Origin: Vicinamibacterales bacterium
GTDB lineage: Bacteria > Acidobacteriota > Vicinamibacteria > Vicinamibacterales > UBA8438
NCBI GenBank assembly: GCA_965204675.1
Contig: OZ242003.1
Coordinates: 5,803,996 to 5,867,995, forward strand
Length of the DNA: 64,000 bases
Reading direction: 5' to 3'
Below are positions 7,991 to 37,603 of the stretch, piece after piece (position 1 is the first letter of the stretch; each line of letters begins with the position of its first letter). Position numbers and translations under genes: made by a program. The notes below the pieces were generated by a model. That model was given only the letters and a program-made list of their open reading frames with translations. It was not told the origin of the DNA and made no database searches.

Positions 7991-8192
7991 CGAGGTGACG
8001 TGGACAACTGCTCCCGAGGCCCTGGCCGAGCTTCGCGTTCCATCGCCGAAGTGTCCCCGGACGAGGACTACGGCAGACGCGTGAGCGCCTGGAACGACAT
8101 GATCACCGGACCCGGGCCGACGCCGTGTACGATGTCGGGGTCGCGCGCGTGTCCGCCGCGGCTGGTCACCAGCGGCCCGCGGGACAGCCAGC

Positions 8193-8495
8193 ATGCCGAC
8201 CACCTACAGAGTCATCCTCGAAACCGAGACCCGCCCGCGTGAAGCCGCGGTCGCCCTCGACCACCTGCCCACCTTCCAGGTCGACGCACCGAACGTCGAC
8301 ACCGCCGCCCGGCTCGCACTGTCCCATCACATCGACAGCCGGACGACCCCGCCTCCCGCCGGGACGTCTTTCGGGCTCCTCGTGATCACGCCGCCGCCCC
8401 ACGACCCGAACGTGCCTCACCACGACCTCGACGACGAGGCCGAGATACACCGCCTCAACGTCGAGTACCGGCCCACCACAACCTCCGCGCACTGA
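8193..8495 (+). CDS. Hypothetical small protein
   Basis: ORF with plausible composition but a weak RBS. Confidence 0.35.
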   Translation: MPTTYRVILETETRPREAAVALDHLPTFQVDAPNVDTAARLALSHHIDSRTTPPPAGTSFGLLVITPPPHDPNVPHHDLDDEAEIHRLNVEYRPTTTSAH

Positions 8496-8599
8496 CCGCC
8501 CGTTTGCGCCCGGAGCAAGCACCCCGCCGCCACGCGAACCACGCCAACCGGCCGCTTGCCGACACGCTTTCGACCACGTTCCCCCATCGACCGCTTCAG

Positions 8600-9194
8600 G
8601 CTGTCGGGACGGCGCTGCAGCGCTTCGCCGTGCGGCCGGTCCGCCGGGCAGCCCTGCGCCACCGGCGTCGTCTCCGTGGCCGGCACCGACGATCGCTGTG
8701 CGACCTCGTGCAGGAGCGTGTCGCAGATGTCGTTCCACGGCGCTCTCGTGGCGGTCTCGAAACGGAAGCGCCACTTGGGAGTACGCCAACGCTCAATCTG
8801 CCGACGGTGCCGCTCGCGCATCGCCTGGAGAGTCAACGCCCGCGGGCCAGGCCGCGGACCGTAGCAACGCGCGAGCCGACTTGCCAACACTGCCCGTACG
8901 ATCCGATGGCTCACCTGCACCGTCAAACGACCGTCAGCGGACTTGCTCCGCCCCCGCGGGCGGGAAGCCTTTTCGGCCCACCCTCCCACCCCTGTTGACG
9001 ACACGACCAGGGGGAGCTCGAACAACGGCCCCAGAACATATCGCGGCGCGTCGGTCGCGATCGTGCGCAGGACGTGCCGGGTCCGAGTAGCGCTGCCCGA
9101 AGGGCACCACGGGAAGGCGGCTGAAGGGCCCGTCGTGCATGCCCGGCTCCGCGGACTGCGCGACCGTCTCCAACTTGACGGTGTCAAGCGACAC
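8600..9194 (-). pseudogene. Possible gene fragment truncated at the IS21 end and read in at least two frames
   Basis: Protein-like stretches 'LDTVKLETVAQSAEPGMHDGPF' and 'LTVQVSHRIVRAVLASRLARCYGP...LQAMRERHRRQIERWRTPKWRFRFETATRAPWNDICDTLLHEV' lie on the minus strand and end exactly at the IS terminus. No family recognised. Confidence 0.25.
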
Positions 9195-12210: not shown

Positions 12211-12359
12211 GCTATGCGGAGTTCCGGACTATGCGGAGTCGGTTGAGGGCTTGCTCTCAAGTACCTGTCAAAACGAGGGTTACGTGAGCTGACCGGTTGG
12301 GGGTACTCCGCATAGTTGGGATGCTCTGTCCGGCCTGATTGGCCGGAAAGGAGCATTCC

Positions 12360-13283
12360 ATGACCGTTCACGGCTCGTGGACCGTCGACCGCCTCGTCGA
12401 CGCGTACACGCACCACCAACGACGTACGCGCGGTTTGCGCCCTCAGACGTTACGCTACCGCGCTTGGTTCGCCCGGACGCTCGTCCGGGCCGCTCTTGGC
12501 GCGGACCCGATCGACCCCAGCCGCCTGACGCCGGCCGCCGTGGTGGTGTTCATCACGTCGTTGCGGCACCGGTTCTCCCCCGCGTCGATGCAGACCGCGC
12601 GGTCATCGTTGCGGTCGTTCTTCCGGTTCCTGCGCGTCGAGGGATTCTGCAACGACGCACTCGAAGCGGCTCTCCCGACCGTTGCCCATTGGCGGCTTGC
12701 GACGCTCCCTCGTTCCCTGACCGAGCAGCAGCTCGAGCAAGTGCTCGCGTCGTTCGACCCGTCCACCCCGTACGGACAACGCGACCAGGCAATCGTGCAG
12801 TGCCTGGCGACCTTGGGGCTGCGGCCCGGCGAGGTGGCCGGCCTTTGTCTGGACGACATCGACTGGCGCGGCGGCACCCTGCAGATACGCACCCGAAAGA
12901 ACCGTCGAGGCGCCGTGCTGCCACTGCCCCGCGTGGTGGGACAGGCGCTGGTCGGCTATCTGAGCGGGGAGCGTCCGGCGACCGACGAACGCCGGGTGTT
13001 CGTCGAGCACCTGGGAGATCGTCGCGGCAAGCCGCTCTCGAGCCCTGCCGTCTCGCGTGTCGCGACACGCGCGGTTCGCCGGGCAGGAGTCGACGCGCCG
13101 CACGCCGGCGCCAACGTCTTCCGGCACACGGTAGCCAGCCGCATGGTGCGAGAGGGGGCCAGCCTCAAGGAGGTCGCTGACGTGCTCGGCCATCGCAGCC
13201 TCGACACCACGACGGTCTACGCCAAGCTCGACCTGCCGCGGTTGCGTGAGGTCGCGCTTCCCTGGCCGGAGGTGCTCCGATGA
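12360..13283 (+). CDS. Tyrosine recombinase, RIT subunit A
   Basis: XerC/D-like: 'GLRPGEVAGLCLDDIDW', 'HTVASRMV', 'LGHRSLDTTTVYAK'. RBS AAAGGAG precedes the ATG at 12360. Confidence 0.85.
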   Translation: MTVHGSWTVDRLVDAYTHHQRRTRGLRPQTLRYRAWFARTLVRAALGADPIDPSRLTPAAVVVFITSLRHRFSPASMQTARSSLRSFFRFLRVEGFCNDALEAALPTVAHWRLATLPRSLTEQQLEQVLASFDPSTPYGQRDQAIVQCLATLGLRPGEVAGLCLDDIDWRGGTLQIRTRKNRRGAVLPLPRVVGQALVGYLSGERPATDERRVFVEHLGDRRGKPLSSPAVSRVATRAVRRAGVDAPHAGANVFRHTVASRMVREGASLKEVADVLGHRSLDTTTVYAKLDLPRLREVALPWPEVLR

Positions 13284-14236
13284 CACCTCCAAGCTTCCAT
13301 CACCTGGTCGACGAGTACCTCACCGCGCGCCGCGGACTGGGTTTCGGCCTCGAAACGGATGAGTGGTTCCTGCGGGACTTCGCCAGCCATGCAGAGCGGA
13401 TCGGACACAGCGGGCCCGTGACAATCGAGCTCGCAGTCCAGTGGGCACTATCCTCACGCTCGACCAATCCGGCGCAGGCTGCACGTCGACTGACGATCGT
13501 GCGGCAGTTCACCCGGTACCGCGCACTCGTCGATCCGGCCACCGAAGTGCCGCCGGTCGGGCTCCTGGGACGCGACTCCAGGCGCCGCTCGACGCCCCAC
13601 ATCTACACCGAGGCGGAGGTCGCCGCGCTCCTGCAGCAGGCACGCTGCTTGCTGCCCCGAGGCGGGTTGCGACCCGCCACCTATGTCGCGTTCTTCGCCC
13701 TGCTGGCGTCGACCGGCCTGCGGCTGTCCGAGGCCCGCCGTCTGACGACCGACGACGCCGACCTCGTCAACGGCATCCTGACCATCAGCGAGACCAAGTT
13801 CCGCAAGTCCCGACTCGTCCCGCTCCATCCGACTACGACCCGGGCACTGCGTCGCTACGCCGACCGCCGTGACGCGTGTCTTGCTGCACCCCGGTCCGCG
13901 TACTTCTTCCGCACCGAGCACTCACCCCGGCTCACGCGCGCCGTGGTGGAGGCGACGTTCCGCGGGATCAGGCGGTGTCTCGACTGGACTGCGGAAGGGC
14001 GTGCGCGACAACCGCGCATCCACGACCTGCGCCACACCTTCGTCGTTCGCCGGCTGCTGCGCTGGCACCAGGAAGGTGCAGATGTAGATCGCAAAGTCCT
14101 GGCTCTCGCAACCTACCTCGGCCACACCGGGGTCGCCCACACCTACTGGTACTGCACCGCCGTTCCCGAGTTGCTCGCCAGCACCGGGCAGCGTTTCGAA
14201 CGCTTCGCCCACCGAGCGTCGGAGCGCCCGTCATGA
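13280..14236 (+). CDS. Tyrosine recombinase, RIT subunit B
   Basis: 'GLRLSEARRLTTDDADL', 'HDLRHTFV', 'LGHTGVAHTYWY'. The start overlaps the upstream stop codon. Confidence 0.85.
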   Translation: MTPPSFHHLVDEYLTARRGLGFGLETDEWFLRDFASHAERIGHSGPVTIELAVQWALSSRSTNPAQAARRLTIVRQFTRYRALVDPATEVPPVGLLGRDSRRRSTPHIYTEAEVAALLQQARCLLPRGGLRPATYVAFFALLASTGLRLSEARRLTTDDADLVNGILTISETKFRKSRLVPLHPTTTRALRRYADRRDACLAAPRSAYFFRTEHSPRLTRAVVEATFRGIRRCLDWTAEGRARQPRIHDLRHTFVVRRLLRWHQEGADVDRKVLALATYLGHTGVAHTYWYCTAVPELLASTGQRFERFAHRASERPS

Positions 14237-16275: not shown

Positions 16276-19200
16276 TCACCCGTCGCGCCGGAATCCCGGA
16301 GGTGGCGCCTTAAACCGCGTGGCCGCCAAGCTCTCGCCACCCCAGTGCCCCGCCGCCTGCGCGACCGCTCTGGCCACACCCCCCCTCTGGGCCTCCAGCA
16401 GTTCCCTGACTGGCAACCGGACGTCCGCTGTCAATACCAATCCTCTTCCCCGCAGCCTCGCCAACTCGCGCCCATGGGTACGCCGCGGCGTCCACAAAAA
16501 CGACCCACCGTACCGTCCGTGATTAACTGACGCGACGTTCACATAGTTCTCGTACGCTCGCACCCAGGTTAGCGAATCGAATAGCTCCACGTCCTTGTTG
16601 AACGCCACCATCAGCAGGTGTAGCAACTCGCCTCGTAGCGCCCTCCACGGCGCCGCGTCAATCAGATCCGCGCAGATCGCCACGCTGAAGTCCCCCCACC
16701 TCGGGTGCACGAATCGATACCAGCGTCGGCCCCGCAGCATGCGCCACCGCGTCTGCGACGCCCCCGCCGACAGCGCCAGCGCCAAACCGTCCTCCATGTG
16801 CGCCGCCACCGGCTTTTGAATGCGAAACCAGCGCACAGTCGGCGGACCACGGTCCTCTCCAACCGGCACAATCAACTCCACCTCGTTCACGAAAAACCTC
16901 CGCCTCGCAGTGAATATCCTCGGGGGGCGGAACGCAGGCCTCAACGCCCGCCAGTAAAGCCCCGCAACCGCCGCTTTGCCTTCACTCCGAACCAAATCCC
17001 GGAGGCTCCCCACCTCCTGTTGCGGAATTGCCAGTTCCGGAAGCACCACCACACCCGGACCCGAATCCCCAACGCCCTGCGTCGGCGCAAGAAAGGCGTT
17101 GCATACCTCCTCTATCATTTCGTTCGCCGTAGTAGTCAAAACCCGCGGAAACTGATCCACAACCTCCCGCCTAGCCGGCCACGCCGCCACCTGCCCGACC
17201 CGCACCACCAGCTCATTAGCAATTCCAGCACCGCCAACCCCCAATTCTGGCGGCAGCTCGGGCCCGCCCAAATCACCCGGTGGCCGAATCGTCCTCACAA
17301 TTTCCCAATCTCGACCCACAGGCAAACCGACATCAATGCGCTCGGGCCGGAAGTCCTCAGTCGAAATAACGTCGCGCGACCACCCGGCCAGCGACTCCAC
17401 CAGCCGCCTTCCCCATTCGGTCACATCCGACTCTGGCGCCGCGCTCCAGCGCAGCGCCTCTTCAATCGCCTCCCATGCGTCAACAGGCAAGTGTATCCGC
17501 GCCCGCCATGACCACCGATCTGCGAATGGCGTACCCCTGACACCCGTCCGGGCCAAACCGTCTAGAATCCGCTCACCACCATCCAGTACCGTCAGCAGGA
17601 GAAGAACATCGCAGTACAGCACGTAGCTATCCACGTGCACTGCGCGCCCACTCGCGGAGGCAAACGGTAGATAAAACGCCTCATGCGGCAGCACTTCCCA
17701 TGCCATCGCCCTTTCTATCTGTAGCGGGTGCTCGGCATGTGCCGTTTCCTCCTCTGGAAAAAACTGATCGCGGCGACCGGCCGCCAGGGCCCCTTCCGTA
17801 CCATCGATTAACCAGTTCAGCGGCCCCTGACTTGGGACCCACCCCCCGGGCATATCCGCCGCCCGGACGACCCTGAACAACGCAGCCCCTACACGGCTCG
17901 GCAAACCAACAGCCGGCATCTCCCACGGGGCCATCGGCCAGTCGTTCAGCGCGGTCCCCACCGGCGTGCCCCACAAGAGCCTGTGTACCGTCACTACACC
18001 CGCCGGCCTCGGGTCGTGGCCCACGATGAGACGTCGCGCGCGCGCGTAGTCGCGCAGGAGAAACGCATCCCGCCCAAGCGCCGGGTCTGTATCCCCGCCT
18101 ATCGGAGGAAGCGCGCGACGTGCGAGCGCCGGCCCCACCCATCCGAAGCAGCCGAGGGCCAACCCGGCCGCCACCGCGCCCCGGGCATCGCTTTCGGCTC
18201 GCGCTATACGTGGCCGGCCTGACGTCGGGAACAGCACACCGCCCAACTCTTGATTCCAATGACCCAGTTGCACGTTCGCCAGCGCCCAATAGTCCAGCCT
18301 TCTATTGCGCCTCGATCCCGTTCGACGCAACCTTCCGAATCTGGCCAGGATCTGCGTCGCCTTCGGCATACCCTCAAGTAGCGCGGTCGCCGGTACCATG
18401 AGTATCGCCTCGGGGCCGGCAGTGCGCCGCCATGCATCCGCGAGGTCGGCTGTCGAGTGCATCGCCAAGATCGCTCCGACGAACTCATCAAGTTCCCATG
18501 GCCATGCCTCCATATTCGTGCCGCTTTGCGACGGATACAGCACATCCACCCATTGATCGATTCGGCCCAAAGATGTCGCTACCTGCGCGTGGCCCAGGTC
18601 AGCCACGGCTCTCGTAGTCCACAGAACAGGTGGAGGTATCCAGGCATCCCGCTCCTCGTGTGCCATTCGTGCGGCATGCCTTTCCAAGTCGCGTATCGCT
18701 TGCGCCAGCGCGTGCCAAAACGCCGCTCGGAGAAACGACAGATAGAGTGCGCTCCAACGCTCAGTCCGTTCGTTGGCGTGGCCGTCATCAGCGTCCACCT
18801 CCGGCCACGCGTTCAGCCACGCCGCGGAATCTGTATGGTCAGTTACGCATGCGATCCGACGGAGCTGATTGCCCAGCCACTCTGACGCCTCTTGCGAACT
18901 GTGCTTCGCCTCGCCGAGCACGCGCCGCGCAGCAGCACGAACTACGGCCCGCCAGATCGTGAATTTCCAGGGTGTTCGGTCCAATACGAAGCTGACTGTG
19001 TCGCGAATCCGGCGCAGCTCCCGGTGCTCTTCGCCCACATCGAGGGACTTCGGCAGCCAGGCCCGAACAAGCCGGTTGACAGAAAACGCGCGACGCGTGT
19101 CGGGTCGCACTTGTTCGTCTGCGATGTCGAAGCGCGCCAGTTCGTGGAGTCGCGCCAAGTGGTCCCGTGCGCCATCGCCGAACCGCTGGCGCAGAGTGTC

Positions 19201-20661
19201 TGTCCCTATATCGCTCAGGCGTTCCACCAAGCCCGTGACGAACGGACCGACGTCTCCTCGTTGGATCGCCGTGCGCACCAACGACTCGCGATGGGACACG
19301 AACTCCTTGCGGGTCAACTTTGCCAGCCACCAGTTCAATATCGACTCAGGTGCGCGCTCGCTAGTAGGAGACGGCGGCAACGGCTGTTTGCATGTCTGGT
19401 CCACGCACTCGATCCAACCGTTCTCCACGAGGTAGATGCGAATCACTTCCTGCACCGCATCCGGCCTGATTTTCTTGAAGTTTATGCAGATATTGGAACC
19501 CCTGTTGGGAGTCGCAAGCGAAGCCACCTCGGCTCCCGACAGTGCTCCGTGAACGGTCTCGACGAGAGACCAAAGGCCATCCGGCGATCGGGACATCACG
19601 TACATGTCGTCGGCGAACCTGACGATCGCTCCACGTTTGTCCTCTGTGTTTCGTTCCAGGTAGTTCTGGATTATTCGATCCGGTTCCAAGAAGACGACAT
19701 TAAGCAATATCCCGGAGATAGCGAGCCCGGTAGGTATCCCATCGTGCGCGGATACCTGTGGGAGTGGGTGGCCCCGTGGCGGTCCCCAAGACTGGGGCGG
19801 GATTCCAGCGGGATCCAGGGTGATCTCACCCAGGGCTGTCGTCAGCCGGCGCCCAATGTCCGCTCGAACACCGGGGAGGGCAAGCGCTTCGAGTACCGTC
19901 TGCGGGCAGCCGTCAAACAGCGAACCAACGTCTGCCGGGCGCCGCAACGCCTGTTCCATCGCCATGGCCAGCCGATTGAGCCGTACGGATGGATACGCCA
20001 GTTCGACATCCAGGGCGGCCCAGAACGCGCGCGGCGCGTCGGGTGTACCGCGCCACCAATCCTCGCGCGTCCACGGCGGCAGCTCTGACTCCTCGTAGTC
20101 CGCGGGTAGTTGTACGCGGCCGGAATCATCTGTCGCTGGGAGGGTCGCGTCCGTCATGCGGGCGACGGTCCAATGCGCCACGCGCCGAAATAATCCGTGG
20201 GAGCGAGCGTATGAAAGGAAGATCTTGTCCGTGAGCATCGGATATCGACGGTGCCGCCATCGTGGCGGTTCTGCCCGACGATCCCAGGCGATTGGCCGGT
20301 ACCACCGATTCCCGAATGCGAAATTGGTAACCTGCACATCGAGAATCGGTCCCAGCGCGACCATGTGCGCCATGAACGCCACTTGGTCGCGTACGGTCGG
20401 CATCACGTAGTGCCTCAGCCGGGCGCCCTTTTTCGGGTAGGGTACCTGACGCCATTGCTCCGGCGACCAGGTCGCGGCCCGGAGCTCCTCTGCGAGGTCG
20501 CGAAGCATCCCTTCAGGGTACAGCCGCCAGCGGGATAGTTCCGGCTGCGGCGCCAAGTCGCCCTTTCGGTACCAGGAATCCACCCGCATCCAGGCACCCT
20601 GCAGGATCACCGGATTGGCGAGCACATCCGCCGCCTGCCGTGAATCGTGTTCGGAGTTCAT
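16276..20661 (-). CDS. Giant reverse transcriptase / helical linker / nitrilase-superfamily (C-N hydrolase) fusion protein; DRT type 1 (UG36)-like defence RT candidate
   Basis: RT motifs: 'PYPKKGARLRHYVMPTVRDQVA', 'ALDVELAYPSV', 'GIPTGLAISGILLNVVF', 'RFADDMYVMS' (FADD at 19606-19617). Nitrilase E-K-C candidates: 'VVLPELAIP', 'FRIQKPV', 'VAICADL' (Cys codon at 16672-16674). The maximal ORF starts at a TTG (20724). ATG at 20661 has AGAGG 11 nt upstream. Confidence 0.85.
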   Translation of the reverse strand: MNSEHDSRQAADVLANPVILQGAWMRVDSWYRKGDLAPQPELSRWRLYPEGMLRDLAEELRAATWSPEQWRQVPYPKKGARLRHYVMPTVRDQVAFMAHMVALGPILDVQVTNFAFGNRWYRPIAWDRRAEPPRWRHRRYPMLTDKIFLSYARSHGLFRRVAHWTVARMTDATLPATDDSGRVQLPADYEESELPPWTREDWWRGTPDAPRAFWAALDVELAYPSVRLNRLAMAMEQALRRPADVGSLFDGCPQTVLEALALPGVRADIGRRLTTALGEITLDPAGIPPQSWGPPRGHPLPQVSAHDGIPTGLAISGILLNVVFLEPDRIIQNYLERNTEDKRGAIVRFADDMYVMSRSPDGLWSLVETVHGALSGAEVASLATPNRGSNICINFKKIRPDAVQEVIRIYLVENGWIECVDQTCKQPLPPSPTSERAPESILNWWLAKLTRKEFVSHRESLVRTAIQRGDVGPFVTGLVERLSDIGTDTLRQRFGDGARDHLARLHELARFDIADEQVRPDTRRAFSVNRLVRAWLPKSLDVGEEHRELRRIRDTVSFVLDRTPWKFTIWRAVVRAAARRVLGEAKHSSQEASEWLGNQLRRIACVTDHTDSAAWLNAWPEVDADDGHANERTERWSALYLSFLRAAFWHALAQAIRDLERHAARMAHEERDAWIPPPVLWTTRAVADLGHAQVATSLGRIDQWVDVLYPSQSGTNMEAWPWELDEFVGAILAMHSTADLADAWRRTAGPEAILMVPATALLEGMPKATQILARFGRLRRTGSRRNRRLDYWALANVQLGHWNQELGGVLFPTSGRPRIARAESDARGAVAAGLALGCFGWVGPALARRALPPIGGDTDPALGRDAFLLRDYARARRLIVGHDPRPAGVVTVHRLLWGTPVGTALNDWPMAPWEMPAVGLPSRVGAALFRVVRAADMPGGWVPSQGPLNWLIDGTEGALAAGRRDQFFPEEETAHAEHPLQIERAMAWEVLPHEAFYLPFASASGRAVHVDSYVLYCDVLLLLTVLDGGERILDGLARTGVRGTPFADRWSWRARIHLPVDAWEAIEEALRWSAAPESDVTEWGRRLVESLAGWSRDVISTEDFRPERIDVGLPVGRDWEIVRTIRPPGDLGGPELPPELGVGGAGIANELVVRVGQVAAWPARREVVDQFPRVLTTTANEMIEEVCNAFLAPTQGVGDSGPGVVVLPELAIPQQEVGSLRDLVRSEGKAAVAGLYWRALRPAFRPPRIFTARRRFFVNEVELIVPVGEDRGPPTVRWFRIQKPVAAHMEDGLALALSAGASQTRWRMLRGRRWYRFVHPRWGDFSVAICADLIDAAPWRALRGELLHLLMVAFNKDVELFDSLTWVRAYENYVNVASVNHGRYGGSFLWTPRRTHGRELARLRGRGLVLTADVRLPVRELLEAQRGGVARAVAQAAGHWGGESLAATRFKAPPPGFRRDG

Positions 20662-20782
20662 GTATCGGTCGACCTCTGTCGCTCCGTCAGCACTGCCGGC
20701 GTGCGTCAACCAGCCGCCCGCCAAAGTGGGTCAGAACACCTCGAGATCGACAGCGGGAAGTGCGCCGAAGAGGCTCCGCGGC

Positions 20783-21564: not shown

Positions 21565-22722
21565 TTAACGGGTAGGCACAGAGCCGGTCACGAACGCGGC
21601 CCATCGGTCCATCAGCCCGCGCCGCTGGTCGAACAGATCGCTGCGCGCGTAACTGCGCTCCACAGCTCCGCCGACCACGTGGGCAAGGGCCATCTCCGCC
21701 ACGTCCCTCGTCGCCCCGGACCGCTCCGCCGCCCACGTGCGGAAACTCGAGCGGAAGCCGTGAACGTCCGCATCCGTCCCCGTCGCTTTCCGCAGCGCGT
21801 AGATCAAGGTGGTGCCGTTGAGCCGCCGCCCGCCCACGCCAGGGAAGATCAGCGAGTCGGCCGCGCCGCCAGAATGCGCCTTCATGCCTTCCAGCACGCC
21901 CACAGCCGCATCCGACAACGGCACCCGATGTTCCGCCCCGGCCTTCATCCGCGACGCCGGTACGCGCCACTCCCGCGCCGCAAGGTCGACCTCGCCCCAC
22001 GTCGCCCCGCGAGCCTCGCCGGACCGTACCGCCGTCAGCGCCGTGAAGCGAATCACCGCCTTGACGGCCGGACCGGACCCGCACGCCTCGACCGCCGCCA
22101 GCGCCGCGGGAACGTCCGCGTACGGCAACGCCCGCCGATGCGCTCGGGTCTTCGGGGTCTTCGGCAATGCCGCGTCGATCACTTCGCCCGCCGCGTTCAC
22201 GTCGACGTGCCCGAGAGCTTGCGCCGCCGCGAGCACGCCCCGGACCCAACCGCGCAAGAGCTTGCCGGTCGCGGGCTTGTCGCGGTAGACCGGCCCGAGC
22301 ACCGAGAGCACGGCCGCCCGGTCGATCTGGTCGACGGGTCGCCCCATCAGACGCGCCGCGTACCGCGCCAGGGTCCGCCGCCGCGTCTCTCGGGTACTGC
22401 CGCACCACTGGCCCCCCTGATCGACCTTGGCGGACAGGTCCGCGAACGTCGGCACGGTCGACGCACGCCCGGACGGGTCGCCGCCGCGCTTCGCCGTCAG
22501 GCGGTTGTCGTGCGCCCGCTCCCGAGCCTCGGACAGCGTGACGGCCGGGTAGGTCCCGATGCTGATGTCGCGCCGCTTCCCCTGGACGTGGAGCCGTTGA
22601 ACCCACCGCTTGTTGACCCGGCCCGTCCGGCCCTTGGCCACGACCAGGTACACCGTGTCGCCCGCCTGATACCGGCCCGGCTTCAGTAGCGTCTCGGCCC
22701 GCTTGGCTGTCAGTCTTTCCAT
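21565..22722 (-). CDS. int: Site-specific tyrosine integrase (P4-like, DUF4102-type N-terminus), intact
   Basis: 'LTAKRAETLLKPGRYQAGDTVYLVV', 'LTAVRSGEARGATWGEVDL', 'HRVPLS', 'HGFRSSFRTWAAE', 'ALAHVVGGAVERSYARSDLFDQRRGLMDRW'. ATG at 22722 has GGGAGG 9 nt upstream. Confidence 0.9.
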   Translation of the reverse strand: MERLTAKRAETLLKPGRYQAGDTVYLVVAKGRTGRVNKRWVQRLHVQGKRRDISIGTYPAVTLSEARERAHDNRLTAKRGGDPSGRASTVPTFADLSAKVDQGGQWCGSTRETRRRTLARYAARLMGRPVDQIDRAAVLSVLGPVYRDKPATGKLLRGWVRGVLAAAQALGHVDVNAAGEVIDAALPKTPKTRAHRRALPYADVPAALAAVEACGSGPAVKAVIRFTALTAVRSGEARGATWGEVDLAAREWRVPASRMKAGAEHRVPLSDAAVGVLEGMKAHSGGAADSLIFPGVGGRRLNGTTLIYALRKATGTDADVHGFRSSFRTWAAERSGATRDVAEMALAHVVGGAVERSYARSDLFDQRRGLMDRWAAFVTGSVPTR

Positions 22723-22851
22723 GGAACCAGCCTCCCTTGGCCGAAATACTACACCCACGGTACGCCCACAGTCAAGACCCGGATTCGGGTGGATCGTCCC
22801 GGACCGGTCTGGACCCGGGAGAGGGTAAATTTCCCTTATTCCGCTTTGAAA

Positions 22852-27937: not shown

Positions 27938-28741
27938 CTAGCGCAGCTCGTCCAGGGCCACCCCGCGCGCCTCGAAGGCGGCGGTGAGCAACCGGCCCGC
28001 GTTCACGGCGGCCGGCCAGCCCGCGTAGAAGGTGACGTGCAGGACCACCTCGGAGAGCTCCTGCGGCTCGACGCCGTTCTGGTCGAGGGCCCGGTCGATG
28101 TGCAGTCGCAGCTCGTTGGTGACGTAGAGGGCCTGGTTGACGGCCACGGTGATGAGGCTGCGGTCGCGCTTCGAGAGCAGCGGACGCTCCCAGATGTCCC
28201 CGTAGAGGAGGCTGTTCCGTAGCGCCCCCAGCCGCGGCACCGCCGCGTAGGCGTCGCTGAGCCCGCCCGGGGTGGTGACCTCGGCCTCGAGCGCCGGCGC
28301 CCGCGGCAGGTCGCCGAGGGTCAAGCCCCGCGCCTCGAACGCCTCGGCCGCGGTCAGCGAGGCCTGCACGCCGGTCGGCCAGCCCGCGTAGAACGTCACG
28401 TGCAGGATGATCTCGGAGATCTCCTCGGGCGTCAGCCCATTGTCGAGGCCCCGCGGGATGTGAATGGCCAGCTCCTCCCGGGCCAGGGCCTGGAGAACGG
28501 CGATGGTGATGAGGCTGCGGTCGCGCTTGGACAGGTACGGGCGCTCCCAGACCTCCCCGTACACCAGCGAGTTCCGCAGCTCGCGGAGATAGGGGGACCC
28601 GGCGTACAGGTCGGGAGCGGGCAGGGCAGGGACATCGGCCTGCTGGGCGGCGGCGGTCGTGACCGACCCACCGAACGCCAGGCCCGAAAGGCAGAGCGCC
28701 GCCACGACGAACAGGTGCGTTGCGCGGGTTCTCGTCGACAT
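27938..28741 (-). CDS. Tandem-duplicated carboxymuconolactone decarboxylase (CMD/AhpD-like) domain protein with a signal peptide
   Basis: Two copies of '...RN(S)L(V/L)YG(E/D)(V/I)WERP.LSKRDRSLIT.AV...HVTFYAGWP' occur within one ORF. Confidence 0.8.
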   Translation of the reverse strand: MSTRTRATHLFVVAALCLSGLAFGGSVTTAAAQQADVPALPAPDLYAGSPYLRELRNSLVYGEVWERPYLSKRDRSLITIAVLQALAREELAIHIPRGLDNGLTPEEISEIILHVTFYAGWPTGVQASLTAAEAFEARGLTLGDLPRAPALEAEVTTPGGLSDAYAAVPRLGALRNSLLYGDIWERPLLSKRDRSLITVAVNQALYVTNELRLHIDRALDQNGVEPQELSEVVLHVTFYAGWPAAVNAGRLLTAAFEARGVALDELR

Positions 28742-28889
28742 CGTTCAGGACTCCTTCGCGGTTCCGGGAATCGCCCGCCATTCGCGGGCGCGGGTACTTC
28801 GACACGCCGATGATATCCGGGCGCGTAGATTACCGCGCCGGGACTCCCTTCGCATCCCGCAGCCGCGGGCGGCGGAGCGCCGGGCCGTA

Positions 28890-29447
28890 CTCGTGGATAA
28901 CGGCCCTCTGCCGCTACGCCTTCCCGCGCATCGGGCACCGACCGGTCTCGGAGGTCACGAGCGCCGACGTGCTGGCGATCCTCGGCCCCATCTGGCACAC
29001 GCAGCCCGTCCGCGCCAAGAGCGTCAAGCAGCGCGTCCACACCGTGCCGGAGTGGGCGATCGCCATGAACCTGAGGAAGCCGACCCGGTGCGGCCGGTCC
29101 TCCGCCCACAGCGCAACATCGTGCAGCACCGGCAGGCGTCGCCGTACCGGGAGGTCGCCGCGGTGCTGGCGACGGTGCGGGCATTGCGCTACCTGCCGGC
29201 TGTCCAGCCACGCTGCGGCACCGCCGCCGTTCCGCACGGCTTCAGGTCCAGCTTCCGGGACTGGGCGGCCAAGGAGACCGACCACCCGCGCGAGGTCATC
29301 GAGGCGCTGGCGCACATGATCCAGAATCCGGTCGAGGCGGCCTACGCCCGCTCGGACCTGTTCGAACGCCGGCGACGGCTCATGAACGACTGGGGCGCCT
29401 ACCTCGACCGCGAGCGCCGGGCGAGCCGGCTCGCCCCGGCTCTTTGA
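28890..29447 (+). pseudogene. Third integrase homologue, a degraded remnant (frameshift plus internal deletion of the catalytic core)
   Basis: 'ALCRYAFPRIGHRPVSEVTSADVLAILGPIWHTQPVRAKSVKQRVHTVPEWAI' in one frame. '...PYREVAAVLATV...PHGFRSSFRDWAAKETDHPREVIEALAHMIQNPVEAAYARSDLFERRRRLMNDW' in another. About 100 aa between the two blocks are missing. Confidence 0.75.
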
Positions 29448-29630
29448 CGCGGCGGCGCGGCGGACGGCGAACACGCCGCGGCGGCATGGCGGCGGCTGGC
29501 GGCGTTGTTCCAGGTGGTCGGCAGCGAGCCGATCCACCACCGGGAGCGCCGGTCAGGCGCGGCCGGCAGCCAAGGGATCGAAGGGGACGCGCAGCTTCCC
29601 CTCGCCACCACAATGTCGGACATTGGGTAA

Positions 29631-29662
29631 GCTGGCTCCCGACTACCAAGTCGGGAGCCAGC
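29631..29662 (+). terminator. Perfect 13-bp-stem hairpin GCTGGCTCCCGAC-TACCAA-GTCGGGAGCCAGC
   Basis: Read directly. There is no clear T-tract, so a terminator role is only a guess. Confidence 0.3.
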
Positions 29663-30326
29663 CCCTTTCCGGGCCGCTCGTTCGTGCGTCACACCCGCCG
29701 GGTCGGGTCGCTCCCCCTCGAACCTTCCCTTCTGGAAGGAGATCCGCCCCCGCTGGCGCAGCCGCTTCGTGCCAGCCGCTCCGACGCGCGTCAGCACGTC
29801 ACGCTGCCACGCACGTACACCGACTGCAACGCCTCTCGGCCGGCTGCCGAGGCCGCCCTGCCGCGCGCCCTCGACCCGCACGTCAACGCGCCGATCCAAC
29901 GTACAGCGTCACCCGCAGCGCAGCCCCCGGTAGCCCCATCGCCGACGACGCCACCCGGCGGACGGTGCGCCCGTGCCCCCGCCACTCGGTCCCGCGATCC
30001 CGTAGCCGATGTCGTCCGCCAACTGCTCGCCCGCCCGCGTCGAAAAACGGTCGAACCCAGCGACGGCGTCATCGTCAGCGACAGACCCCGGCCCGCCAGA
30101 CAGGATCGAAACGCACCGAGGCGTGAAGCCCCACTCCTGCTGTTTCGGCGACCGGAAAGCCCGCCAACCCGACGTGTGGTACGCTGTCTTGTTGTCGGAT
30201 GAGTTTCCTCCGAGAGCGAACGCCAAATGTGCCGGCACGAGGAGATCGGGCGGGCCTACGGCCGCCTCGACAAAGCGATCACGGCTGAGGCGTCGAATGG
30301 AACGCGTCGGCTGGGTGAGGGAGCCA

Positions 30327-30968
30327 ATGAACACGTTCGTATGTGCCGATGAGTGTCAGGACATTTTGGGATCTTTGGAACAGTGTGCCTTCAGCTTAGC
30401 TCAAGCGCGTCGATCAGAACGGGCTTGGAAATGGGTCGTCTTGTCCCTTCATAGCGCCTTGCAGGGTGCCATGGTCTGTCACCTGTCTGGAACGGAACAA
30501 CTTGGCGCGCTACAAGAACGCGGTGCCACAGAATGGCGTGAATGGAACAACAAGAGTATTCAGGAGGGTGACGAAGACGCCGGTGATCCCCCTCCGGCGC
30601 GCCTCGCCGACGCTAACGAACTGTTCAAGCGGCTACATCGTTCGGCCGCTCGGATCGAAGATGGATGTGGTGGGGTGATCTCGGTCACCGAACAGCAAAA
30701 AGCATCGTTCAAATGGCTGCACGAACTTCGGAACGAATTCTCTCATTTTAGTCCAAAAGGTTGGAGCATCGGACTGTCTGGTACCATGCAGGCAATTGAC
30801 GACGTGCTCAACATCATGCGTCTGATCGCGAATGATGATTGGCCGTTTTGGCATATGACAGAGCACGGGAACATCCTGCGTTCGAAGATCGAAGAGGTCC
30901 GTCGGGAAGCCGATGGGATTGACCGAATACTTGCGATCCGCGGAGGCCTCGAACGAGAGGATGCGTAA
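30327..30968 (+). CDS. Hypothetical protein with an Rx4H (HEPN-like) motif, in a visibly low-G+C islet
   Basis: RBS GAGGGAG before the ATG at 30327. 'FKWLHELRNEFSHF' has R135-x4-H140 (nt 30729-30746), matching the 'l..lRNxxxH' pattern of HEPN/DUF4145-type domains. The motif evidence is short. Confidence 0.6.
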   Translation: MNTFVCADECQDILGSLEQCAFSLAQARRSERAWKWVVLSLHSALQGAMVCHLSGTEQLGALQERGATEWREWNNKSIQEGDEDAGDPPPARLADANELFKRLHRSAARIEDGCGGVISVTEQQKASFKWLHELRNEFSHFSPKGWSIGLSGTMQAIDDVLNIMRLIANDDWPFWHMTEHGNILRSKIEEVRREADGIDRILAIRGGLEREDA

Positions 30969-31084
30969 TTTGTCACACGTACTCAGTCCCGTCGTGGTCG
31001 ACCTCCTCAGCCTCGCCGGCACTTGGTTCTACCGGCAAAGGGGGATTGCCGGAGTGATCGCGTCGCGACCACGGGAGTGCCCCA

Positions 31085-32197
31085 ATGAAGCTGATGCAAA
31101 GGAAACAACCCTTGATTGCCGTTTTTGTACTGGCGCTGGTACTCGTCGCTCCTTCTGGCGTGCTCGGGCAGGACGACGAGCTTGATTCGGAGTCGATCGG
31201 TGAACTTCGCCGCCAAGCCGAGCGGGGAGTCGCTGAGGCCCAATTCGCGCTCGGCGACGCATACGCCCTCGGCCAAGGTGTGCCTCATGACGAAGCTGAG
31301 GCCGTGACGTGGTGGCGCCTAGCTGCGACGCAGGGATACGCTACTGCTCAAGTCGCGCTCGGCGACGCGTACGCCAACGGCTGGGGTGGGGTGCCCCAAG
31401 ACTACCAAGTGGCCGTGACGTGGTACCACCGGGCCGCGACGCAAGGAGACGCTGAGGCCCACTACAACCTCGGGTTCATGTACGCCAACGGTCGGGGCGT
31501 GTCGCAGGACGACGCGGAAGCCGTTCGATGGTACCGCTTGGCCGCCGAGCAGGGGCTCTCCGGCGCGCAGTACAACCTCGGGTTTATGCACGCCAACGGT
31601 CGGGGCGTGTCGCAGGACGACGCGGAAGCCGTTCGGTGGTACCGCTTGGCCGCCGAACAGGGCAACGCCCCGGCGCAATTCGTCCTCGGATTCATGTACG
31701 AGAATGGTCGGGGCGTGCCGCAAGATGACGCCCATGCCGCCACTTGGTACAGTCAAGCCGCGACGCGGGGAGTCGCTGTAGCCCAGCACCAACTCGGGTC
31801 CATGTACGCCGACGGTCGGGGCGTTCCGCAGGACCAAGCGGAGGCCGTTCGGTGGCACCGTTTGGCCGCCGAGCAGGGCAACGCCCCAGCGCAGACGGCA
31901 CTCGGGCTTATGTACTTCGACGGTCGGGGCGTTCCGCAGGACCACGCGGAAGCCGCCGGGTGGTTCCGCTTGGCCGCCGAGCAGGGCAACGCCGCGGCGC
32001 AGTACGTCCTCGGGCTCATGTACCAGAGTGGTTGGGGCGTGCCGCAGGACTACGTGTCCGCGCATATGTGGTTCAACCTTCTCGCGGCGACCGGCGACGA
32101 GGTTGCCCGCAGGGCGCGCGAGAATGTCGCTTCCAGCATGACGCGTGAACAGATCTCCGAGGCGCAAGCGCGGGCACGGGAATGGGCGACTCGGTGA
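31085..32197 (+). CDS. Sel1-like repeat (SLR/TPR-like) protein with a signal peptide
   Basis: About eight repeats of 'AEAVRWYRLAAEQGNAPAQ..LG.MY..GRGVPQD'. N-terminal 'KQPLIAVFVLALVLVAPSGVLG'. Confidence 0.85.
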   Translation: MKLMQRKQPLIAVFVLALVLVAPSGVLGQDDELDSESIGELRRQAERGVAEAQFALGDAYALGQGVPHDEAEAVTWWRLAATQGYATAQVALGDAYANGWGGVPQDYQVAVTWYHRAATQGDAEAHYNLGFMYANGRGVSQDDAEAVRWYRLAAEQGLSGAQYNLGFMHANGRGVSQDDAEAVRWYRLAAEQGNAPAQFVLGFMYENGRGVPQDDAHAATWYSQAATRGVAVAQHQLGSMYADGRGVPQDQAEAVRWHRLAAEQGNAPAQTALGLMYFDGRGVPQDHAEAAGWFRLAAEQGNAAAQYVLGLMYQSGWGVPQDYVSAHMWFNLLAATGDEVARRARENVASSMTREQISEAQARAREWATR

Positions 32198-32710
32198 GCC
32201 GGCAGACCCCGAGCGAGAGCACGACGCAGGGGGCGGGAGTGGCACGCGACGCATCTGGAACCCTGACGGGGATGCGGTAGGCCAAGGGAGCCGGCAGTCG
32301 CGAACCGAAGCCCGATCTAGATCGGTCCGCGGGCAGTCCCTATCTGGTGCGACCGAGTCCGGTTTAGTTTACGGGGTACCGTATGGGAAGCACAGGGAGG
32401 GAAGACTCCGTAAAGTATGGTAGGCCATAGAGTTGCGGAATTTTGTATGGCGGACCATGGCCATGCCTCCGCCGGGCGACTCGGGCGAACGCCGGACGGT
32501 CGGGGCGGCGCAGTGCGAGAATGGCAGTGACGACGACGGTCGCGGCCTCGCCCGCCAATCGTCGCCCGCAACTCCGCCTGGCGCCGAACCAACCCTTCAA
32601 GGGTCCGCGCCGTTCTGCGACGCAGACGCCTGACCGAACGGTGGAGAGGAGCCTCCGCGGGGGCGGGATGCCACGGCCGAGCAGGTCATTCGCAGGGCAG
32701 GCCGCGTGGA

Positions 32711-37603
<4,893 letters not shown>

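Follow-up and report, generated by a model that had tools for sequence, protein, structure and literature searches.

The locus described here raises the question of what a small gene of low G+C content, carrying an RNxxxH motif and lacking a recognisable partner, encodes. The gene lies on a stretch of 64,000 nt of DNA from a Vicinamibacterales bacterium (assembly GCA_965204675.1, contig OZ242003.1, positions 5,803,996-5,867,995 of the forward strand), which was analysed in its full length and is called the window in the following. An earlier note on this DNA had interpreted the gene as an orphan encoding a candidate HEPN-type ribonuclease (RNase), either a toxin or a defence component. By analogy with characterised HEPN proteins we favour, with some reserve, the view that the gene encodes a solo HEPN endoribonuclease, abortive infection (Abi)-like or toxin, which belongs to a new HEPN family. 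The features of the gene are the following:

30327-30968, plus strand: HEPN-like gene, a stop-free open reading frame (ORF) with a predicted cytoplasmic, all-alpha product of 213 aa and about 24 kDa (P0001)
30729-30746, plus strand: predicted HEPN Rx4H active-site motif R135-N136-E-F-S-H140, where helix 122-138 ends and the next loop begins
30426-30491, plus strand: second conserved block W34-K35-W36...H42...Q46-G47...C51...L53-S54-G55 in predicted helix 2, specific to the family
30290-30326, plus strand: 5' leader, conserved at the DNA level in four cassettes, non-coding, with a Shine-Dalgarno-like run

The 213-aa frame proved to be intact as claimed. Its product contains FKWLHELRNEFSHFSP, and the codons of the motif were located at 30729-30731 (R135), 30732-30734 (N136) and 30744-30746 (H140).

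A bare Rx4H pattern in a single sequence of 213 aa is unremarkable by itself. Conservation was counted in an alignment of 230 homologues, the check by which the earlier note had proposed to judge its own reading. R135 and H140 were among the best-conserved residues (227/230 each), together with L99 (229/230), K35 and W36 (221/230 each), and W34 and W146 (217/230 each). Both motif residues were also invariant in further family alignments (A1, A5, A6, A8), and members with 23-28% identity retained W34-K35-W36, H42, R135 and H140. Because it is near-invariant in 230 homologues, the motif goes beyond chance. In HEPN proteins the motif is located where helix 3 ends, and the arginine is followed by a polar residue, N, D or H (PMC3710099). 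The spacing found here falls within the Rx4-6H pattern of HEPN domains, and the residue after R135 was N in 199, R in 11 and D in 8 of the 230 sequences; a homologue with RRQFAH and WKWAILSMHSALQG fits the variant with R at position 136. The sole clear exception to the motif was P0166, in which the histidine is replaced (RNRLTN). As this member is a fusion to an HTH_3 domain, its deviation is consistent with the other members being active. The second block, W34 to S54-G55, may have a part in the active site or in binding RNA.

AlphaFold (AF2) models were obtained for P0001 and for L033, a compact homologue with 25% identity. The P0001 model (pLDDT 89, pTM 0.85) is all-helical, in line with the earlier description of the product. 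Two helices (9-26 and 31-53) are followed in it by an insert of about 70 residues with short helices (54-121), by helix 122-138 ending in RNEF, a loop with H140 (139-152), helix 153-169 and an extra helix 180-212. The L033 model (pLDDT 88) has the same layout with a shorter insert; R121 lies in helix 107-125, which is followed by a loop and by helix 139-156. The core is thus predicted to be a four-helix bundle (helices ~9-26, ~31-53, ~122-138 and ~153-169) to which the C-terminal helix 180-212 is added. HEPN domains are defined as four-helix bundles of two alpha-hairpins with frequent inserts between helices 2 and 3 (PMC3710099; Anantharaman et al. 2013), and in both predicted structures the motif spans the passage from a helix to a loop, where this definition places it. 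In Foldseek searches against the Protein Data Bank (PDB), the top match of the P0001 model was HepT (7bxo_G; E=0.065, probability 0.97, TM normalised to target (TMt) 0.50), and further HepT or HEPN chains recurred, with TMt values of 0.50-0.52 for HepT. The L033 model matched 7bxo_G with a TMt of 0.60 (rmsd 4.6 Å, 152 columns, 16% identity), followed by 7bxo_D (0.57), 6m6u_G (0.55) and 5yep_B (0.54), rmsd values for HepT being 4.6-5.5. The search against the viral structures of BFVD gave nothing meaningful.

Profile searches pointed in the same direction. When 117 diverse members were scanned singly against Pfam, the top recurring families were HEPN_Apea (9/117), HEPN_RiboL-PSP (5/117) and HEPN_Cthe2314 (3/117); a further per-member scan was made on a set of 32 members. 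DUF4145 (PF13643), which the earlier note had named among possible families, matched neither P0001 nor any member in the listed tallies of the 32 and 117 sequences. With hhalign, the family was compared to alignments of ApeA, RiboL-PSP and AbiU2 that had been assembled from genome hits. The RNxxxH motif was superposed on RNYxTH of ApeA-HEPN with P=0.0011. The motifs also aligned with those of RiboL-PSP and AbiU2, yet not significantly, and membership in both families was rejected: in RiboL-PSP with P=0.2, and in AbiU2 (PF18734) with P=0.32, its absence from the per-member Pfam tallies and its different motif (RNRRIAH, Rx5H, versus RNEFSH). A search of the window's genome with PF18734 found nothing. 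A sub-profile of helix 3, motif and helix 4 aligned to both catalytic HEPN motifs of Cas13b (6dtd, 150-164 and 1058-1073; LQVLRNYYSH and LIAVRNAFSH) with E=1.2, and R.SwaI was returned from the same region with E ~1. Two full-length profiles gave chance matches to PDB sequences (ribosomal bS16, clamp inhibitor, Bmp8).

The survey of homologue neighbourhoods, likewise proposed beforehand, was run on 36 loci. ORFs were called, and all those within 3.5 kb of the homologue were clustered after all-against-all BLAST. No conserved partner emerged: when the homologue and its shadow ORFs are left aside, every cluster was confined to a few close relatives at most. Among the 127 immediate neighbours, no Pfam family dominated (AAA_21 three times; integrase, DUF4238, Sel1 and DDE transposase twice each; single hits to IS66 and several DNA methylases). 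An MNT nucleotidyltransferase was found neither among these 127 neighbours nor in ten loci that were annotated, so that the claimed lack of an MNT antitoxin holds across the 36 loci. In eight of the ten annotated loci the neighbours included defence, toxin-antitoxin (TA) or mobile-element genes. The annotated neighbours were:

L002: HicB-like, DUF4238, UvrD, AAA_15/21 plus DUF3226, DUF4145
L003: integrase, ApeA-HEPN, type I restriction-modification (R-M), GmrSD
L004: SIR2_2, DDE transposase, FitA-like
L047: AbiEii fragment, rve, integrase
L073 (Asticcacaulis): gene starting 2 nt after ParE of a DUF6290-ParE pair
L074: two integrases, RiboL-PSP-like, PDDEXK_4, GmrSD_C, IS66, DruA
L076: gene immediately preceded by a type I R-M operon and a YgjP-like gene
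L001 and L075: mostly unannotated small genes

The homologues are thus best described as stand-alone genes lodged in variable DNA that is anecdotally rich in conflict systems. In Asticcacaulis sp. SL142 (CP113061.1; L073, 6513-7648), the string of DUF6290, ParE and homologue is inserted beside the ribosomal cluster EF-Tu/EF-G/S7/S12. On the conjugative plasmid pYGP1 of Sphingobium sp. YG1 (L095, 3021-4621), the homologue starts at the last base of an HNH-endonuclease gene, and the two genes look translationally coupled. In L001, a DUF222/HNH gene is located 3.5 kb upstream of the homologue. Small ORFs upstream of the homologue in the ten loci included a HicB-like gene (L010), a transposase fragment and an RNase H gene as the only identifiable ones, none of them shared.

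The label of an orphan, given to the gene in the earlier note, was borne out with respect to partner genes and not with respect to relatives. P0001 has 149 homologues in a collection clustered at 90%, all annotated as hypothetical, and when clustered at 50% identity the family amounts to at least 872 clusters (E<=1e-3), 290 of which reach E<=1e-10. Searches of P0001 against Pfam, NCBIfam, PADLOC and PHROGs gave no family match, a single hit to RamC_N (E=0.14) being due to chance. P0001 is therefore a member of a large, mobile family that is so far without a name and without a model in the domain and defence libraries searched. Named sources of homologues are Vicinamibacterales, Gemmatimonadetes, metagenome-assembled genomes of Alpha- and Gammaproteobacteria, Asticcacaulis, Neorhizobium, Aliiroseovarius, Mesoflavibacter, Desulfobacterales, KSB1 and Babeliaceae; the family is represented in Acidobacteriota, Alpha- and Gammaproteobacteria, Bacteroidota, Desulfobacterota, KSB1 and Babeliaceae. 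Fifteen plasmids, nine of them conjugative, carry a copy (Bradyrhizobium, Sphingobium, Alteromonas, Methylobacterium, Methylomonas).

The gene is accessory and moves horizontally. It was found in one of 21 other genomes of the same genus and in two of 36 in the taxonomic family, and its G+C content was below that of the surroundings in nearly all of the 36 loci (e.g. 0.40 versus 0.63, 0.39 versus 0.61, 0.31 versus 0.53). Three of 31 genome copies look disrupted (L014, L022 and L027; ~8000-8660 in each). In L022 the copy is interrupted by an in-frame stop that follows codon 161, beyond which the remainder continues in the same frame; the copy in L027 is frameshifted and that in L014 truncated. 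Fusions of the family domain to domains of antitoxin or nuclease type (DUF429, HTH_3 or Unstab_antitox) are rare, and the members of unusual architecture were:

P0214: 336 aa, tandem duplication of the domain
P0123: 492 aa, N-terminal DUF429 (E=1.5e-13)
P0166: 298 aa, N-terminal HTH_3, motif histidine replaced
P0116: 269 aa, N-terminal Unstab_antitox (PF09720; E=2e-9)

On plasmid pNK6a of Bradyrhizobium diazoefficiens (L094, 3974-4489), GenBank lists the N-terminal half of a member as a RelB/DinJ family addiction module antitoxin of 115 aa. Ten other Bradyrhizobium plasmids carry the same gene labelled as hypothetical protein, and the pNK6a label probably reflects a truncated gene call or a misannotation.

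A number of results weigh against the proposed assignment and have to be set beside this evidence. No significant profile match to an established HEPN family was obtained. The best Pfam E-values (RiboL-PSP 0.0033, Apea 0.0053, Cthe2314 0.031) were all under the gathering thresholds, the alignment with ApeA covered 31 columns at a probability of 21%, and none of the profile searches against PDB gave a HEPN match below E=1. Foldseek E-values were 0.07-1.3 for both models and hence not significant, and other helical bundles scored similarly by E-value. All-alpha bundles match promiscuously. Since the E-values are not significant, the fold match to HepT is suggestive only. An acidic residue of the Ex3[KR] type is not evident in helix 2, where W34, K35, W36, H42 and Q46 are found instead; conserved acidic residues (D8, E9, D12) are located at the start of helix 1. 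The acidic residue in helix 2 is a feature of many HEPN families only (PMC3710099). With respect to a role in defence, little that is defence-like adjoins the homologue in L001 and L075, the enrichment of defence genes is a qualitative one in ten loci without a matched control, and none of 50,697 phage records contained a copy of the family.

No single test was thus significant. In combination, the motif with its placement, the polar residue after the arginine, the order of helices, the matches to HepT, which were the best compact ones, and the recurring weak Pfam hits, which were exclusively to HEPN families, make it likely that the family has a HEPN fold, and the HEPN-type interpretation of the earlier note was supported on these grounds, neither half of its refuting condition having come true.

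The gene is followed in the window by a gene for a Sel1-repeat protein, with which it forms a cassette:

31085-32197, plus strand: Sel1-repeat gene, 370 aa, eight Sel1 repeats (Pfam E=6e-85)
30145-32282, plus strand: two-gene cassette (HEPN-like and Sel1), about 2.1 kb, common to L047, L001 and L006/L049, with unrelated flanks in each genome

The Sel1 gene is built of DNA repeats of 108 nt (six at 108-nt spacing), and the N-terminus of its product resembles a signal peptide (MKLMQRKQPLIAVFVLALVLVAPSGVLGQDD), in agreement with the claim of a secreted neighbour. Because of this N-terminus, a direct antitoxin role of the Sel1 protein is unlikely. In L047 the similarity extends over 30145-32206 with 88% nucleotide identity, the Sel1 proteins being 86% identical, and in L001 and L006/L049 from 30290 to ~32282. 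The HEPN-like proteins of the four cassettes are 65-88% identical; more distant homologues are found without Sel1. A Sel1 gene adjoins the homologue in three of the 36 surveyed loci, with L047 as the fourth cassette, and 22-116 nt separate the two genes. The pairing therefore amounts to a mobile cassette that is conserved within one clade and not to a general partnership. The earlier note had called it unusual. It is indeed restricted to four close relatives; it is less unusual than had been thought, given that AbiU2-type HEPN genes have been reported in operons with Sel1-repeat genes and R-M systems (PMC3710099, Table 1).

The ATG at 30327 was taken as start codon for three reasons. DNA similarity to the relatives begins only at 30145 (L047) or 30290 (L001, L006), a 1-nt indel of L001 in the conserved leader breaks the upstream frame, and nearly all homologues begin at an equivalent methionine. 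The open frame around the gene starts at 30009. A longer ORF from 30009 or 30297 was rejected, as upstream conservation is at the DNA level and the indel interrupts the frame; for the latter reason the leader is regarded as non-coding. At the DNA level this leader (…GTGGAACGCGTCGGCTGGGTGAGGGAGCCAATG) is conserved throughout the four copies of the cassette, reaching back to 30145 in comparison to L047, and may be a regulatory element or a 5' untranslated region. The ribosome-binding site described as strong corresponds to the Shine-Dalgarno-like GAGGGAG at 30317-30323. The deviant base composition of the locus was likewise evident: G+C content was 0.54-0.58 over 30200-31000 versus 0.71-0.80 in the flanks, and 0.542 for the HEPN-like gene in a genome of 71%. 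G+C content at third codon positions (GC3) was 56% in the HEPN-like gene, 76% in the Sel1 gene and 94% in the adjacent Lhr helicase gene.

About 0.9 kb upstream of the HEPN-like gene, the integrase remnant mentioned in the earlier note was recovered; it is real though badly degraded:

28659-29447, plus strand: degraded tyrosine-integrase remnant in two frames (28659-29447 and 28720-29319), consisting of a core-binding-like piece and an HGFRSSFRDWA...LMNDW block

The C-terminal block matches positions 331-396 of the NCBIfam integrase PRK09692 (E=4e-8), and the remnant is the trace of an old integration upstream of the cassette. Together with three intact tyrosine recombinases (12339-13283, 13280-14236 and 21565-22758), it belongs to the region between about 12 and 32 kb of the window, and the first clearly core gene downstream is Lhr (32711-37603). 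The HEPN-like gene is located at the edge of an integrase-rich mosaic region. No tRNA was found beside the remnant, no Rfam family within 28500-33000, no promoter- or terminator-like site at the locus, and no convincing cassette-bounding repeats or attC-like sites. Directly after the remnant there is a hairpin at 29631-29662 with a perfect stem of 14 bp and a loop of 4 nt (GCTGGCTCCCGACT/AGTCGGGAGCCAGC), followed by about 650 nt of G+C-rich DNA in which the GC skew is strongly negative and no ORF is convincing. Between the Sel1 gene and the start of Lhr, a non-coding segment of about 160 nt (32300-32460) has a lower G+C content and lacks Rfam matches as well as promoter- or terminator-like sites. 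A 1482-aa ORF on the minus strand (16276-20724), scanned in its entirety, had no Pfam match at E<=1e-5, and its label as RT-nitrilase was not reproduced at that threshold. Outside the window, the genome has a HEPN_RiboL-PSP match at 3792500-3792901 (L070; 32.5 bits, above the Pfam cut-off; motif RHGIVH), and the host therefore carries at least one other HEPN-type gene.

Among the known systems nearest to the family is HepS, the 'HEPN Solo' Abi protein of the Gifsy-1 prophage of Salmonella (PMC13043305). Both are single small HEPN-type proteins encoded in mobile DNA without a partner gene, and both have an RNxxxH motif (R100-N101...H105 in HepS, R135-N136...H140 here). In contrast to this likeness, sequence similarity was not detectable and HepS structures were outside the top 50 Foldseek hits. 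The family described here has parts of its own: an insert of about 70 residues, a WKW/H42 block and an additional C-terminal helix. Its members reside on chromosomal islands and plasmids and not in the phage records searched. HepS is an experimentally established precedent for a solo HEPN protein acting as sensor and effector. HepT of the HepT-MntA system (type VII TA; 7bxo, 6m6u, 6m6w, 5yep) gave the best compact structural matches (TMt 0.50-0.60). It is a small all-alpha Rx4H protein as well and acts as an RNase toxin. The family differs from it by the lack of MNT genes, the lack of a DUF86/HEPN Pfam hit and a length that exceeds that of HepT by about 80 residues, and the Foldseek E-values have the limit stated above.

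AbiU2 resembles the family in being a stand-alone protein of about 200-250 aa with a conserved R..H, and its reported Sel1 and R-M contexts resemble the cassette of the window and several homologue loci. Apart from the motif spacing and the absent Pfam match, it differs in that Sel1 linkage is limited here to one small clade. The Sel1 operon that is shared with AbiU2 is a resemblance, confined to the window, L047, L001 and L006, and not a sign of membership. ApeA, RiboL-PSP and Cthe_2314 HEPN proteins (PF18739, PF18735, PF18730) have a nearly identical local motif, [LT]RN-x-[FY]-[ST]-H-[FYW], and genes for ApeA and for a RiboL-PSP-like protein adjoin the homologue in L003 and L074, respectively. 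However, these proteins are alignable only from helix 3 through the motif to the beginning of helix 4, and the family lacks both the N-terminal beta-rich domain of ApeA and the fusion to endoribonuclease L-PSP. The match to Cas13b is local and non-significant; Cas13b is an effector of 1127 aa with two HEPN domains, and there is no CRISPR context here.

HEPN enzymes typically form dimers, in which two Rx4-6H motifs make up one metal-independent site that leaves 2',3'-cyclic phosphate ends (PMC3710099; PMC13043305). By analogy, two protomers of the protein would pair, and a composite endoribonuclease site that needs no metal would be built from their R135-N136-x3-H140 motifs; this site would cut cellular RNA (tRNA, rRNA or mRNA) and thereby cause growth arrest. 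As a HEPN protein without a partner must be kept latent, and as no partner gene is conserved in the family, the protein would most likely be made in a latent form and await activation by a trigger, for instance a phage protein. It would then be a single-gene Abi or toxin module. HepS is a constitutively made, inactive tetramer which is opened by a phage tail-tip protein and then cuts anticodon loops of tRNA (PMC13043305). Autoinhibition or sensing of the trigger might be the task of the family-specific parts, namely the insert of about 70 residues, the C-terminal helix and the WKW/H42 block. In the window, the gene has arrived by horizontal transfer as the 2.1-kb cassette together with the secreted Sel1 gene. 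RNase activity, dimerisation, latency and its trigger, and a role in defence are all attributed to the family by inference from characterised relatives.

The most serious alternative is that the protein is non-catalytic or not a HEPN protein at all. It would then be a helical protein, for instance with a regulatory or immunity function, in which R and H, together with H42 and C51, bind a ligand, a metal or another protein, the resemblance to HEPN being convergent. We regard this as unlikely. It would account for the fact that every HEPN similarity score remained below significance and for a second conserved block (WKW, H42, Q46, C51) that has no counterpart in the HEPN definition, and non-catalytic HEPN-like domains do exist (PMC3710099). 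However, the RNxxxH pattern with its exact position and near-invariance is what is expected of a catalytic HEPN domain, the three top recurring families among weak hits are all HEPN, the rare member without the motif histidine is an HTH fusion, and the genomic contexts are of the conflict-system type. Slightly less probable still is a two-gene TA system whose antitoxin escaped recognition, be it a small, fast-evolving upstream ORF, an RNA, or antitoxins swapped between lineages. Such a system is suggested by the members fused to antitoxin-type domains (P0166 and P0116), by the Asticcacaulis copy that begins 2 nt after ParE, by HicB-like genes located divergently upstream in L002 and L010, by unannotated ORFs of 60-90 aa just upstream on the same strand at several loci, and by the disrupted genome copies, as toxin genes often are disrupted. 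Yet BLAST clustering revealed no neighbour common beyond close relatives, the small upstream ORFs are without Pfam hits and do not cluster together, and no MNT gene occurs anywhere in the surveyed loci. In the window itself, no convincing ORF is present in the upstream 880 nt, and the product of the gene downstream is secreted.

The cassette invites a third explanation, the least probable of the three, in which the HEPN-like and the secreted Sel1 protein are a functional two-component system, e.g. an envelope Sel1 sensor or adaptor coupled to a cytoplasmic RNase, comparable to the AbiU2-Sel1 operons. That both genes travel together in four genomes with different flanks, separated by short gaps without a terminator-like site, would agree with such coupling. 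Against it stand the presence of Sel1 in only the four close loci and its absence from the other 30-plus, the different compartments implied by the signal peptide, the unequal GC3 values, and the fact that the family is not AbiU2. A solo HEPN endoribonuclease therefore remains the interpretation that we favour. A bolder extension of it, which we offer tentatively and consider doubtful, is that the family represents a widespread single-gene anti-phage RNase ('WKW-HEPN'). Its insert, WKW/H42 block and C-terminal helix would be a built-in sensor that keeps the nuclease latent until a phage component binds, and in one acidobacterial clade a secreted Sel1 protein would couple the envelope side to the cytoplasmic RNase.

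HEPN RNases are among the commonest effectors of bacterial conflict systems (Cas13, Csm6, HepT, AbiD/F, PrrC, RnlA, HepS), and many divergent HEPN families still escape the domain databases. What is new here is the family itself; mobile solo HEPN RNases, to which it probably belongs, are already well known, and the general understanding of HEPN systems would stay unchanged. Defining the family would improve the annotation of defence islands and add a candidate single-gene Abi or toxin module, and it would give a second, independent case of linkage between HEPN and Sel1 genes.

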